A stretch of DNA of 64,000 nt from Octopus sinensis (GCF_006345805.1 NC_042998.1:117738001-117802000); one strand, 5' to 3'; shown: positions 3,965-58,660, counted from the first letter of the stretch. The notes: generated from the letters alone by a model not told the origin. Translations and numbers: made by a program.

Positions 3965-4335
3965 GGGTACTGCAAATTTAGGGTGAATACTTGGTAAGTG
4001 TAAGCACCTGTATACGCCGGATAGTGGAAGAGGTGAGAGAGAATATATCAAATAAAATCAAAAACAGAACACAAAGGATATCGCGGTACACGTGTTTCAA
4101 GCTTTATAAACGACCTGTTCTTACATCAGTGTATAATAGATATAACGGATGGTTTAAAGCTCTCTTATTTGTAGTCTGATGTAACTCTTTGGAATAACAA
4201 TATACGCGGCTGAAGAGAGCTTTAAACCATATTTTATATCTTTAAAAACTGATGTAAGAACAGATCGTTTATAAAGCTTGAAACAAGTGTAACGCGATAT
4301 CCTTTGTCTTCTGTTTTTGATTTTATTTGATATAT
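3965..4335. mobile_element. Short foldback element with ~120-bp inverted arms (4043-4166 / 4213-4335), Penelope-pLTR/retrozyme-like
   Basis: The arms are imperfect reverse complements (the ORF track gives ISNKIKNRxQRISRYTCFKLYKR on both strands). The left arm has an unpaired outward extension (3965-4042). It is inserted in (TA)n. Confidence 0.85.
4205..4296 (+). ncRNA. Type I hammerhead ribozyme motif
   Basis: CGCGG-CUGAAGA-GAGCUUUA..UAAAGCUU-GAA-AC AAGU GU-A^-ACGCG: intact core, 8-bp stem II, short stem III, and a stem I with one mismatch. The opposite arm keeps CCGCG and the palindromic ACACGUGU. Confidence 0.8.
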
Positions 4336-5027
4336 ATATATGTGTATATATATATATATATATATATATATTATATATATATATATATATATATATATAT
4401 ATATATATATATATACGACGGTCTTCTTTCAGTTTCCGTTTACCAAATCTACTCACAAGTCTTTGTTCGGCCCGAGGCTAAAGTGAAAGACACTTGTCCA
4501 CGATGCCATGCAGTGGGACTGAAACCGGAACTATGTGGTCCGTTAGTAAGCTACTTACCACATAGCCGCTCCTGACTAAAATCAAAAACCAACAGTGTAT
4601 TCCATCTTCCCCAAATATAGTCAACCTCAATTAATTTCTTCGAATGTGAAATGCTCAGAAAGTCTAAATATTTGATATAAACACCGTGTGTTTATTATTT
4701 ATTATTATAGGGAAATAAACTTCATAACTCTATCTCGACTCGGCAGCCGCAACACCAGTTGTAAATTATAGAATAGGCTGCTGTAATGTCAATAAAACAA
4801 GTTCCATTAAAACCGGAACAATAAAATCAAAATATGAGCAACGAAAATAAAGGAGAGTAATTGCAAAGGAAAGAAATAAGAGGAAGAAATAGCATAGAAT
4901 AAATTGTGAGGAATTTAATAACACCATCAAAATTAAATGCAATAGGAATGTCTCCAGGTTAATAAAGTCACTAATTTTAAGCTAAACTATTTACACATGT
5001 ATGTGTGTCTGCACGTGTGTATGAATA

Positions 5028-5330
5028 TGTATATATATATATATACATACATATATATATATATATATATATATATATATATATATATATATATATATAT
5101 ATATATATATATACATATATATATATATATATATATATATATATAATATATATATATATATATATATATATAATATATATATATATATATACATATATAT
5201 ATATATTATGTATATATCTCTCCATATATAGAGAGCCACACAAACATATATATGTAATTATAGATAAACTGATAGATAGATAGATAGATAGATAGATAGA
5301 TAGATAGATAGATAGATATAGATAGATAGA
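5028..5330. repeat. (TA)n and (GATA)n microsatellites
   Basis: Directly visible. Confidence 0.95.
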
Positions 5331-7249
5331 TGTGTCTGTATGAGTGTCTGTGCTTGTGGATCGGTATAGTTCTGCTCGTATGTTTGTATTCATATACTAT
5401 ATATTGAATTATTACAGAGATCAAAATCGACAGCCGACTAATTAATAGAGAAAGAAAATTATATGAATTCTAAATGTAATAAAACTGTTGAGAGCTCCAA
5501 AGCTGTAGGATAATATTTGGACATGTATAATCTCCAAGAATTACTTACTCATCTAAAAGATAAAGGTGTCTTAGCAAATGAAGTAAAATATTGTTTTTGA
5601 AAGTATATATGTGGGTGTAAGTAACAAATATTGATAAATGGGAAAGTTACAAAATATAGCAGAACAAAAGACACTGCTAAGCAAAGCCATGGACCGATTG
5701 TTAAATGACATTCAACATCATAATGTCAAAGTTTAGGGTTACTGTATAGATTACAGATAGTAAGAGAGTATATCATGAAAGTCCAAGATTAAGTCAGTGA
5801 ATCTATCAACTTTATTTGCATAAATCTAAAACATAAAAAGACAAATCGAGGTAAAAGATAAATAAAATATAAACTGAGTTTCTCTCAGTAAGTTCCAATT
5901 TCTACCAGCTAGAATCAATTCTCTGTCAATATTTTCTATGTAGCTCTGACAAAAGTAAGGAGTTTCTGCTATCAAGACATCAGTTGTATTGAATTCTATA
6001 CGTAAATTGTAAAGCATCTCTTTGTATGATTCGATGGTGTATATGCTGAATACAGAGTAAATAACCAAAAAATTAATTAAAAAAGAAAATATATCAAGAT
6101 TAATCAGCTACATTAAACAATTTGGTAAAAATTGAAAATTAATTACAACGGAAACTATCATATTAAATCCATATACTGAAATATGGGAATACAAACAGAG
6201 ATATCAATACACATATTTATTTGAAAATGGAAGAAAGCAAGGAAGGAAACCTTATAATCGACTATAGCAAAAGAGTAAATATCACAAAGAAGTCGGAATA
6301 TAATTTCGGATTTCAAAATAATGAATATTAAAAACACTAAATGTATATGTATCCCAGCCACGACTGCAGTTTCAATATGAGAAACTTAAACTAACTAAAA
6401 TGAAATTAACATCAGAATACTACTCATTGAATTTCAAACGCAATATCCGCAACAAATATATAAAAAATATAAATATCAACATTAAACGATGCAATGCGGG
6501 AAGATATATTTCTACCCTATCACAGATTAAATAATTCATTAATGTCATACTTATTACGGTATTGAGAATCACATTTATAGTGTAGACTGTACAAAATACT
6601 TGACAACATATTTCCGTTGGTTTTCAAGCATAGGAAAAAGATTATCATGTTAGCAAAAGGATTCGAAAGAAGTGTAAAAGATTATAAACATAAAATAAAT
6701 AAATCGAAATATATTCAACCATTTACATAAGAGCAAAAACCATATTCTGCCATGGAAATTAATGGCTGTGGACGTTGCTATTTGGGGAAATTAGACTACG
6801 TTTGAATATAAAAGATTGGGTCCAGATGAATTATGTCATAGCATCTTTGGAACATTCTTTTATAGGGATCGAATCGAACTCCTAACCAAATGGAATGCAT
6901 ACTTTAGCGAGATGATCGATATCAGAAACTGATCGAATAAGTTTATACGAGAATGAAAGCTAGATAAATAAATCACCACTATTATGTAAAGGAGGGATTG
7001 AGGGTGACAACCAAACATTACTTCATGTAATACAGATATTTTCTTTGCATATATTATAAAACAGATTAAATATTCCCTTGTAAGATTATATGATATACCT
7101 TACCACTGGATGATATATGTGTGTGTATGAGCGTATATGGATGTAGTACTATAAGTGGGAGTTAATTTGAAAAAAAAGGAGACCTAGTTCATTATGGAGG
7201 GACTGAGAGCAATTATCGGTACCATTTAAGGGAAATAAGCGTAGGTGAA

Positions 7250-7395
7250 TTTCGCCTGAGTTCGAATAGGGTCGACGTCGCCTTTTATTCTTTCATAGTC
7301 GATAAAATAAGTACAATTCAAGCACTGTGGTCGATGTAATTGACTTGCCTCTTTCCCCGAAATTGCAGGCTGTGTGCCACAATTTCAATCCAATA
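7250..7395 (+). mobile_element. SINE fragment (family of 28715-28930)
   Basis: GTCGACGTCGCCTTTTATTCTTTCATAGTCGATAAAATAAGTAC matches the central domain of the 28.7-kb SINE. Confidence 0.65.
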
Positions 7396-56100: not shown

Positions 56101-56101
56101 A

Positions 56102-56945
56102 TGCATATGAGCATCGTTTCATTACTCCTCAATGCCATAAAGTATACAAACTACAGCTGGAAAATATGTGGAGACTTGACTGGATGTTGATGGGAATGCA
56201 AGCTGGGTTCACTAAATATTGTTGCATTTTATGCCTATGGGACGGTCATGCAACTAGCAAGCACTATGTGCAATCAGAGTGGAATTAGCGAAAATCAGAT
56301 GAGCCGGGAGTCTCTAGCGTCCAGAATAAGCCACTTTTAACCCCCAAAAATGTTCTTCCCCCTCTTCACATAAAGCTTGGCCTCATAAAAGAATTTGTGA
56401 AGACACTTGCCAGAAAAAGCTCAAAAGGTTTTGAATACTTGATGGTCAAATTTCCAAAAATCACCGAGGTAAAACTGAAGGAGGACGTATTCATAGGTCC
56501 GCAGATAAAAGAACTCCTGAAGGACAACCACTTCCTCACAGCACTTGATGAGACTGAGCTTAAAGCCTGGGAATCCTTCAAATGGCTCTATGAGATCTCT
56601 AGAGTTTAGCTGGAATGTTAGCGGATGTTATACAGGGATGAACCTGAGATAAAACGCCATAGAATGTCCAAACCTCAAAGATTTTAAGTTGTTATGCATT
56701 TGAGTGTATTCTAACTTTTTTGTACACAATAACTTTAATGAAATTATCGTATCTTTTGTTCAATATATTTTATATAGACATTCTTTACGTATCCTATAAG
56801 TTAAAACAGCAAGTATCATTAACATGAACATTTGACCTGATAGATGAATTCGGATTCCAGATTTGTAATCAGCATCAAACATTAACCCAGAAAAGTCAAT
56901 CAGCAACTCTGATGATTAAAAAGAGTTTCACTTTGTTGACCAGCG
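56102..56945 (+). mobile_element. Chapaev3-type DNA transposon fragment with 3' TIR
   Basis: GMQAGFTKYCCILCLWD, PPLHIKLGL and KFPKITEVKLKEDVFIGPQIKEL; the end TTTGTTGACCAGCG resembles Chapaev3 termini. Family assignment is from memory of motifs. Confidence 0.75.
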
Positions 56946-58458
56946 TTATTCTTTTAACCGATACCGGGTTTCAGTTCTGATTATAATACGCTAAATAAGT
57001 TAATTAACAATTTGTAGCTCATAAAACTTAAATTATTATACATTTTATATATATACTTGCTATTGAAATTAATAAGATATGGATATTTTATTATGGTTTT
57101 TAGTGATTAGGCTGTTTTTATTCCTTTTCTCTGATGCTCTACCCTAAATATCCTTTTATCCGATATCAGACATCAGTCTTTTATTGATATTAGCAAAATA
57201 TGTAAACATATAATTTTTAGTCTGATATATTTTGAATTATTATAATTTTTCTAAAAATCTTATCTATTGGTGTTATAAAGCTACATATACTTTACCATAG
57301 TATTAGTAATTAAGCCATTTTATTTCCTTTTTCTATGGTGTTCTGCCCTACTTGATTAGTTTATTCTATTTCTTTATTATTTCTAATTAGACTTTATTTA
57401 TTTATAAAATTAATCTAATTTTTGTATCTCTATAAATTCATACTTAGCTTATATAAAACTATACTGGTATATTCAATACTTATAAAAGGAACTACTGCTT
57501 AGATTATAATTATAATTAGCATGTTCCTTTACCTCAATACTCCTTTATTAATACCAATATGTGATGAGTTAATATTTAAGTGTACAATATGTATGCGTAT
57601 TAAACTATTTCTGGATAATTTCTTTTCCTCCCTCTATTGTGGTAAAAGTTGGGTATATACTCAAAAGTGTTCATAGATTTCTATCTTTTTGTTATAATAT
57701 TCTTTTTAATTATCCTTTGAATAACCCTAAAATGTATACAGTATAGCAACATTGTTTAAAATAATTAACTGTAGCACTACATGATAAGGCTTCCCGTGTT
57801 TCATTATCAATGGTCTGCTAGTGTGCGACCCCTTTAATTATCAGCTAATATCTTGTTTTAAGTTTTCCTTTACCAAACCTCATGATATTGCTTCTAATAA
57901 AACTTGACATTTATGACAATACCAACTATGATGTCTATATCATTCCTTAGCCCTATCCCTAACAGATACTGCCCTCTGTTCTCTCAGCCTTAGATATACA
58001 AGGGATTTGATAAACTATTCTATAAATTAAAACTGACCCCATAAAAAAATCAGTGACTGGCAGAGTATGTAACAATGTATAGCTGCTTGAAAAATTCAGT
58101 ATCTTCTAAACTGGAGTTGGGGTAGTATGCTCTTAGTCTATCCCCTTAACTTCTTGGAGAGTTTAGATATAATTATACAATTATGTCTATCTGTTCTAAT
58201 GTAATTAAACTCAATGTATTTGTGCAGCTGAAGATTGCTCAGCATTTTCAATTGATGTAAAGATTGCATTGTTCAAATAAATGGAGTTGCATAAAACGAT
58301 CGTACTGCATTACCTCTGGATATCCTTGTTGCTTATTTTGATTTTAATACCCTTACTTTGAAATTGTGTGGATAATACCGTACCAAATTCTGGTGCCTCA
58401 ACTTAAGTACCATATTCATCTGAATCTAAATTTTCGTTATATATATATATATATATAT

Positions 58459-58660
58459 GCAGCACGGACTTTGTCAGTGAACAGGTCGCGGTCTCAAAGC
58501 TACGAAAAGATTTTGACAAATTTAATTTAATGTTGAAGTGAATCTAACGGTTTTTGCGTGTTTCTTAAATGGCTTATAATCACTTTCCACGCTGCAATTG
58601 TTTTCGTTCCCGCACATAATCTCAGACCAGGTCACTTGCTATGCAAGTACATCTCCGTAA
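58459..58660 (+). mobile_element. Solo arm of the 21.6-kb foldback family, in (TA)n
   Basis: Reverse-complement match to 21566-21769. Confidence 0.9.

Follow-up and report, generated by a model that had tools for sequence, protein, structure and literature searches.

Outward-facing hammerhead pairs in an octopus genome are probably terminal-repeat insertions of three coding Penelope-like retrotransposon families

Introduction

Insertions of Penelope-like elements (PLEs) carry an inverted copy of the 5′ end, a tail on one of two inverted pseudo-long terminal repeats (pLTRs), and target duplications of 8–10 bp; copies may stand head to head, and mobilization can occur in trans (PMC3846280, PMC8557442). 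Their hammerhead ribozymes form pairs on opposite strands, 100–700 bp apart, and include a U3-A8 variant (PMC4209133). For the Anolis carolinensis element Poseidon (PAc), the open reading frame (ORF) begins within the pLTR, the tail is the stretch between two internal start sites of reverse transcription, and the enzyme cuts and extends both DNA strands (PMC11167929). The origin of the inverted insertions is termed undefined in PMC8557442. Here we analyzed a 64,000-nucleotide stretch of the Octopus sinensis genome (GCF_006345805.1, NC_042998.1:117738001-117802000; "the window"), in which a first-pass annotation had noted three sequence-unrelated inverted elements with outward-pointing hammerheads at 4.2, 21.8, and 25.5 kb and had taken them for an abundant class of non-autonomous PLE parasites that obeys a shared design rule. 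That rule is the already published PLE insertion signature (PMC3846280, PMC8557442, PMC4209133, PMC11167929), and the three elements are probably short pLTR insertions of three coding PLE families, referred to here as A, B, and C.

The three families have a linked reverse transcriptase (RT) and C-terminal GIY-YIG domain, an inverted 5′ copy, and an optional single tail, as do endonuclease-bearing (EN+) PLEs. As in Penelope of Adineta vaga (PMC3846280), the inverted pLTR is 5′-truncated, one arm bears the tail, the duplication is short, and the arms stand head to head; family A also has the initiator-like TCACT in its pLTR and the Asn-rich ORF insert of that element. An ORF that begins at the hammerhead, two 3′ end sites, and AT-rich targets are shared with PAc (PMC11167929). 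The pLTRs of A, B, and C hold a type I minimal hammerhead with a palindromic stem III, in opposite-strand pairs, as in PMC4209133, and the U3-A8 form recurs in a further family, P. Unlike the PLEs in the published text drawn on, in which tails measure 30–40 nt, A has tails of ~80 nt and B of ~57 nt, the one-tail arrangement is here counted as near-strict, and the pLTR of C contains a tRNA-like unit; no tRNA-like promoter is described for PAc in the part of PMC11167929 used. The short units also resemble non-LTR retrozymes (bioRxiv 10.64898/2026.07.22.740005, in part), which are non-coding hammerhead units related to pLTRs, but retrozymes are head-to-tail arrays of hammerhead monomers, whereas the copies of A, B, and C in the loci read are single or inverted, and dispersed.

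Results

Three inverted hammerhead pairs in the window

A self-BLAST of the window returned three inverted pairs, each with hammerhead-type motifs directed outward. The family A pair (4043–4335, arms 84% identical) consists of a left arm on the minus strand (3966–4166), which represents a PLE 3′ end with a tail of ~77 nt (3966–4042) and is 95% identical to a natural copy (L016), and a tail-less right arm on the plus strand (4165–4335) with a CUGAAGA core at 4210 and GAAA at 4280. The left hammerhead is interrupted within the core, the stem III palindrome of the right one is mutated, and the insertion target was (TA)n. In the family B pair (21705–21828, 83% identical; 21622–21724/23683–23781, 81%), the minus-strand left arm (21566–21770) has a tail of ~56 nt and decayed core positions 3 and 8. 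The plus-strand right arm begins at 21764–21829, with a G3-type core at 21784 and damage at A9 and GAAA, and resumes at 23683–23781, where it terminates at the tail-less site. The 1.85 kb between the two parts (21830–23682, plus strand) is the relic of a gag-like (zinc-knuckle) retroelement that inserted later and is bounded by a ~20-bp duplication (21810–21829 and 23683–23703), a split that corrects the earlier description of this element. A single B copy on the plus strand (58457–58660) runs from the start site to the tail end with an intact G3:C8 core.

The family C pair (25340–25446/25697–25803, 86% identical) has a minus-strand left arm (25301–25446) with a tail of ~28 nt and an intact minimal hammerhead at 25391–25436. 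It is followed on the plus strand by a tRNA-like head that is decayed here (25455–25535; A-box-like sequence at 25462, B-box-like at 25513), by an (AAT)n/(AAC)n linker within the predicted 5′ untranslated region (UTR; 25536–25656), and by the tail-less right arm (25657–25804), with a core at 25712 in which G8 is changed to A. The right arm also contains the start codon (25678) and first codons of a PLE ORF, so that the previous statement that none of the elements encodes protein needs qualification here. The whole insertion interrupts a long interspersed element (LINE) of the RTE type (24113–25301 and 25797–27345).

Hammerhead motifs or their remains are thus found in all six arms, as first annotated, but only one of the six (family C, left, minus strand, 25391–25436) passed a strict hammerhead scan, the core or the palindrome being broken in the other five, and an Rfam search of the window returned no hammerhead at E ≤ 5. 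The tail-bearing arm is the left one in all three window pairs.

Each family continues into a PLE coding frame

In the 2.72-Gb genome, copy numbers were taken as motif matches with at most one mismatch, for which reversed-pattern controls gave 0. The matches came to at least 638 places for family A, 5,777 for B, and, by its head motif, 7,774 for C, in keeping with the initial view that the elements are abundant. On their 5′ side all three families lead into an RT/GIY-YIG frame, which agrees with the first-pass view that they are PLE-related, and their termini are shared with autonomous PLEs, the link proposed at the outset as a check. For A, the upstream walk crosses a UTR of ~3 kb before reaching an Asn-rich RT/GIY-YIG frame (L272, L274, L275). 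In L272 the 3′ end bears the tail, and an inverted arm without one lies at the 5′ end. For B, the walk crosses 1.3 kb into a different PLE frame (L278–L280), and this upstream sequence is retained at about 850 of the 5,777 places. Both B subfamilies have long members; subfamily B1 accounts for 28 of 50 typed arms in an unbiased sample and for 9 of 24 typed long arms, and those nine led us to reject the notion that B1 is a short-only subfamily.

Family C continues into a Penelope/Poseidon-type GIY-YIG end, and the junction is retained at 1,407 places, compared with 7,774 for the head. In 27 of 30 loci found by the ORF protein, the head lies directly after the stop codon, about 30 nt past it, which places it ahead of the next ORF in tandem copies. 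In such copies (L442, L444–L446, L449), the head is followed in turn by (AAT)n, the start codon, the hammerhead, and the tail, with the reading frame continuing into the ORF, and a homologue (P0003) has the same N terminus across the hammerhead as family C. We had considered C as an independent short interspersed element (SINE) with an undiscovered partner and discarded this once the ORF end was seen upstream of the head. A search for non-SINE sequence ahead of the C hammerhead gave deletion variants only, among the 100 of 943 matches listed. C is without the Cys-rich linker that A, B, and P possess; by the criterion of PMC8557442, and on the absence or presence of this linker alone, C would be of the Penelope/Poseidon type and A, B, and P of the Neptune/Nematis type.

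About 80–85% of B and C copies are short units with a fixed start site, and these look like SINEs in anatomy and spread. Some C copies extend 300–400 nt beyond the tail into the ORF (L410/L414, L417). Several C copies (L410/L414, L417, L441, L442, L444, and L448) end 310–420 nt inside the ORF, a side observation that hints at one more region where RT may start.

Pairs carry exactly one tail and short target duplications

Pair geometry was examined in 282 fetched loci. Because the first family B query contained the tail, unbiased samples were drawn afterwards for C (the 40 exact matches to the head that come first on contig C1) and for B (the first 40 core places). In the 282 loci, 3′ ends clustered at two sites per family, and 71 pairs pointed outward compared with one inward, so that the outward orientation noted in the window holds in these loci as well. 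Among the 62 pairs whose two 3′ ends could both be classified, 59 had one tailed and one tail-less arm; independent choice of ends would be expected to give this in about half of the pairs. The unbiased samples agreed (C, 21 of 23 pairs; B, 24 of 24, or 17 of 17 without seven cargo duplicates). The tail was on the left in 26 and on the right in 33 pairs, which shows that the further 3′ reach of the left arm, although correctly described for the window, is an accident of strand and that the true rule is exactly one tailed arm on either side. The tail was carried by the arm reaching further 5′ in 18 pairs and by the other arm in 24.

In B, 12 of 23 pairs were flanked by target duplications of at least 9 bp, and in C, 15 of 24, compared with a permuted mean below 1; the duplications were often 10–15 bp long. 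The two arms of a pair also tended to share variants. This test omitted four B pairings that join separate insertions, which are included in the pair totals given above. In B, subfamily sites were concordant in 29 of 32 comparisons (null 0.19), and total arm-to-arm divergence was below the random level in this family only; in A, the arms had 31 rare variants in common, a count reached by none of 2,000 permutations; in C, sharing was weaker (7 of 2,000 permutations). A second arm was absent from about half or more of the insertions, junctions varied from copy to copy and were unique to each locus, many fell at short palindromes, and two loci (L010, L030) held arms composed of the tail alone.

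At 8 of 40 sampled loci (L498, L500, L502, L513, L525, L526, L533, L534), one inverted B pair lies inside a larger repeat, with more than 1 kb of flank at 95–98% identity. We therefore rejected the idea of a palindrome that replicates as a unit, the recurrent pair being cargo.

Hammerhead cores differ between families

A minimal-hammerhead scanner found 114 matches in the 282 loci and none in block-shuffled copies, a signal far above chance. C3:G8 was present in 53 of 56 family A arms (core intact in 46/56) and in 200 of 227 family C arms (core intact in 147/227); family P had U3:A8 in 27 of 27 arms. Family B, unlike the hammerheads of PMC4209133, had G3:C8 in 72 of 77 arms, with the core intact in this form in 63 of 77. 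A canonical C3:G8 version of B was not seen among the 100 of 130 matches listed, all of which had single changes. Stems I and II fold in silico in natural copies. G3:C8 is known as an engineered, partly active double mutant from the PAc work (PMC11167929, in part), the term G3-C8 is absent from the text of PMC4209133, and no natural G3-C8 hammerhead is described in the literature searched, outside which lie supplements, Repbase, and Dfam. Judged from its sequence, family B naturally carries the G3:C8 core family-wide, and this is new in that literature. The occurrence of C3:G8, U3:A8, and G3:C8 in separate families of one genome gives natural support for the 3–8 pair and also for selection on the ribozyme fold. 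Hammerheads were also seen in many repeat ends outside these families, in some cases with a U3 core (L011, L021, L087, L103, L126, L159, and L274).

Family C has a tRNA-like head and no shared run of four T

The head of family C is a tRNA-like unit with A and B boxes. Compared with the genome's tRNA-Arg(ACG) genes (called by ARAGORN; the only isotype compared), it scored 59.5 and 62.5, the maximum in 2,000 shuffles being 43, and identity was concentrated in the A and B boxes. A hammerhead body followed 35 of the 40 unbiased heads. The short form thus has the tRNA-derived 5′ head of a SINE2, on comparison with this one isotype, and departs from SINE2 in that the head is not missing from the autonomous partner, being borne by those 27 of 30 ORF loci. 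Separately, tandem tRNA-Arg(ACG) genes with ~206-bp spacing, about 90 among the matches listed, occupy 3.12–3.16 Mb of contig C2 (G000:C2; L221–L239).

Copies of C begin abruptly. Of 55 arms, 45 started at or within the head, three at −14 to −17, and seven continued to the ORF; none of the 55 started between −18 and −169. A preceding G was seen in two of seven C arms that started at −2. In B, short copies start at an initiator-like TC|A with an extra G: among arms reaching the start, a G preceded it in 10 of 18 and 8 of 12, compared with a background of 17%, and long copies have C at this position. We read the extra G as a copied cap, and some of the Gs may derive from the inverted arm. No arm of the unbiased B sample extended upstream of the start region, three apparently long arms being (TA)n artefacts; genome-wide, ~15% do.

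Pol III terminates at four or more T. In the 2,713-nt unit of C, none of 13 shared runs of at least three T reached four (T4), with a median of 61 copies per column, and T4 occurred in no column at more than 10% of copies. In P, A, and B pooled, a control that takes in T-rich UTRs and has the B pLTR in it twice, 55 of 130 shared runs reached T4 (Fisher p = 0.002 versus C). In ORF copies, T4 occurred 0.3 times per kb in C, 2.2–2.7 in P, A, and a family Q, 0.7–1.0 in B, and 1.0 in RTE. The Phe codon TTT was used at 8–33% in seven C copies, which are non-independent, compared with 45–57% for other NNT codons, and this gap was less clear in controls. The absence of shared T4 from the C unit suggests transcription of a coding retrotransposon by Pol III.

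No tRNA-less sister family of C, wanted as a control, turned up. A metagenome scan gave nine distant loci, in seven of which ARAGORN, run on those seven, called no tRNA.

Transcripts and predicted hairpins

The window pairs are predicted in silico to fold as long hairpins (−107 to −178 kcal/mol), and ADAR editing of such pairs, raised in the first-pass annotation, is possible. Sequences of B and C are present in two RNA runs from one study, of a species possibly other than that of the window. Reads resembling C numbered 11,164 and 8,355, about equally in both directions; the runs appeared unstranded, with strand-switch joints and no start pile-ups. Mismatch counts (A>G 38 and T>C 46–62, versus C>T 36 and G>A 34–35) are confounded by copy divergence and yield no editing signal in either sense, and the unique flank at 21.25–21.56 kb of the window had no reads.

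Discussion

Insertion from one RNA at two start sites

From the anatomy, the linkage to coding frames, the two end sites, the target duplications, the shared variants, and the start cliffs, we infer the following course of insertion. A transcript would start within the 5′ pLTR of a tandem copy, and the GIY-YIG enzyme would cut both DNA strands with a stagger of about 12 bp. Both DNA ends would then prime on one RNA, inside its 5′ pLTR, so that only the first 200–400 bases are copied; priming at the outer start site would yield the tailed arm and at the inner site the tail-less arm. Joining of the two cDNAs head to head would give the short, one-tail inverted pair, and priming at the downstream pLTR instead would give long copies. 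Together, the one-tail rule, arms of the same template, and 10–15-bp duplications would tie the two RT start sites known in vitro to inverted insertions.

Several observations weigh against parts of this account. Three of the 62 pairs are exceptions (two tail-less/tail-less and one tail/tail, the last a cross-pairing of separate insertions), and two pairs in the unbiased C sample break the rule. In A, only 3 of 12 pairs have duplications of at least 9 bp, which (TA)n targets mask, and in A and C arm-to-arm divergence is not below that between copies; gene conversion could also give variants common to both arms. A partial tandem, in which pLTR and tail run into the ORF, is present in C and P, but a tail-to-ORF tandem was not found for A or B. 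No intact C ORF was seen, the longest stop-free match being 551 aa, and with all copies seen broken, the RT/GIY-YIG link of C rests on motifs and on homologues with PF00078/PF26215.

The principal competing view sees the short units as non-autonomous parasites in their own right, with solo pLTR masters that are transcribed independently and mobilized in trans by PLE protein (a true tRNA-headed SINE in the case of C). It draws on the excess of short over long copies of about 5 to 1 in B and C, the fixed start sites of short units, the sufficiency of pLTRs in trans (PMC3846280, in part), the existence of non-autonomous Chlamys elements and retrozymes, and the larger share of B1 among unbiased than among long arms. 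We consider it unlikely. The families continue into ORFs, the short units are collinear with the coding elements and contain nothing of their own, long members exist in both B subfamilies, junctions are unique to each locus, and C arms that pass 300–400 nt beyond the tail into the ORF are expected if the template is coding RNA. Moreover, the template of the anole PLE must reach +172 of the ORF (PMC11167929, in part), a stretch that may be missing from solo ends. The short units are better read as by-products of coding PLEs than as the distinct parasite class first proposed. That the pairs move as units by their inverted arms, in the manner of miniature inverted-repeat transposable elements (MITEs) or foldback DNA transposons, might be thought from the length of the arms and from the B pair found with the same junctions at 8 of 40 loci; it is scarcely credible, since that pair is cargo, the remaining junctions all differ, the arms are asymmetric instead of having fixed symmetric termini, a second arm is missing from about half or more of the insertions, and variable junctions together with ORF linkage refute it. 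As to how the inversion arises, fold-back self-priming on an antisense template or cDNA, the model of PMC3846280 (in part), accords with the many junctions at short palindromes and would equally give arms with shared variants. Alone, it accounts neither for the single arm per pair that ends at the inner site of RT initiation nor for tail-only arms, and we give it a minor share of the probability compared with priming of both ends on one RNA.

Polymerases for families B and C

The initiator-like TC|A and the extra G at the start of its short copies make it likely that family B was copied from a capped Pol II transcript. Family C may have been copied from Pol III RNA, and its head, ahead of the next ORF in tandem copies, would then promote not only the coding RNA but also the SINE-like short copies, which number in the thousands. 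That the coding element itself is transcribed by Pol III seems to us from its sequence a real prospect, falling a little short of an even chance; the fuller proposal, in which C is an autonomous coding retrotransposon that captured a tRNA gene as its pLTR promoter, transcribes the whole 2.7 kb by Pol III, and has been purged of terminators, is more tentative again. In the contrary case, the 3′ UTR carries the tRNA-like unit as a mere passenger, left from an old SINE or a tRNA, or the unit is a site of RNase P cleavage or RT stalling in a Pol II transcript, with T4 missing by chance or codon bias, and this we also hold to be nearly an even bet. In PMC10886601 (in part), Pol III is held to have low processivity, and the autonomous partners of elements with Pol III promoters are said to need Pol II. 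Neither ARAGORN nor Rfam calls the head as a tRNA, it has no cloverleaf fold, and a palindrome at its edge could produce the start cliff through RT stalling. T4 tests confined to the ORF yield weak statistics (P = 0.05 and 0.34 by dinucleotide shuffle, P = 0.07–0.28 by synonymous shuffle), the B ORF is likewise T4-poor, the best-kept C copy (L462) has two private T4 runs (P = 0.44), the T-run control is weakened by the UTRs and double-counted pLTR it includes, and the signal comes from a single family and is therefore one evolutionary event. The start-site G test in A amounts to three cases, and starts, caps, and polymerase are read from sequence for both B and C. A passenger, in turn, does not readily account for identity concentrated in the A and B boxes, for a whole 2.7-kb unit, UTR included, that has no shared T4 and normal T3, for the low use of TTT in the seven non-independent copies, or for the lack of a cap-G sign in C, unlike B.

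The nearest described parallels are non-coding or non-autonomous. Schistosoma Sm-alpha/Sj-alpha repeats (reviewed in PMC6765202, in part) also have a Pol III-type promoter followed by a hammerhead, but they are non-coding tandem repeats, whereas in C this anatomy is the pLTR of a coding PLE and inserts as inverted pairs. Cassandra, Helenus, and Ajax of the TRIMp3 group (PMC10886601, in part) likewise have a Pol III promoter derived from a small RNA in the terminal repeat; they are non-autonomous LTR elements of 0.3–1.3 kb with partners expected on Pol II, whereas C is a coding element. No tRNA-headed coding PLE is described in the literature searched, which excludes subscription papers, Repbase, Dfam, and supplements, and within that literature a tRNA-headed, terminator-free PLE is new. 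The usual assumption is that coding retrotransposons are transcribed by Pol II (PMC5786205, PMC10886601, both in part). A coding PLE driven by Pol III would break that assumption; internal priming on its RNA would yield thousands of tRNA-headed, hammerhead-tailed short copies, a SINE-like family born directly from, and sharing its head with, its own autonomous parent, and translation of the uncapped RNA would become a question, requiring a cap-independent route, perhaps via the (AAT)n/(AAC)n leader. In annotations of such genomes, PLE ends may lie behind many of the repeats entered as "unclassified SINE" or MITE.

Other features of the window and loci

The PLE relic noted in the first-pass annotation is present at 30457–31843 (strand not assigned) and consists of an inverted RT piece and a GIY-YIG piece (E = 0.0012, under the Pfam cut-off). 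It belongs to family P and has no terminus in common with A, B, or C; we rejected it as their partner, since P has its own U3:A8 terminus. Family P (also L153, L155, L156, L158) is young, has many copies, and includes intact RT-EN frames of 782 aa; a 499-aa upstream ORF overlaps the RT-EN frame in the −1 frame at TTTTTTA. This run of six T followed by A is likely a ribosomal frameshift site. The 3′ UTRs of A and B have a common module of ~190 nt in opposite orientation (L016:691–880 versus L113, L116–L118, and L120).

A paralogue of the gag-like insert in the B right arm, at 48682–49428, matches zf-CCHC at E = 0.0098, under the Pfam cut-off. In the gag-like zinc-knuckle elements at 21830–23682, 48790–49365, and 50623–50904, no RT was seen, and they are possibly ORF1-only non-autonomous LINEs. 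A further hammerhead-type end at 58226–58432 is decayed and 72% like a family in L282. An array of inverted ~290-bp RTE 3′ ends with 90–98% identity occupies 13441–15414, after an RTE copy at 11.2–13.9 kb. Near-perfect local direct duplications at 56448–56989/58924–59465 (99%) and 62919–63360/63554–64000 (98%) represent either recent events or assembly artefacts.

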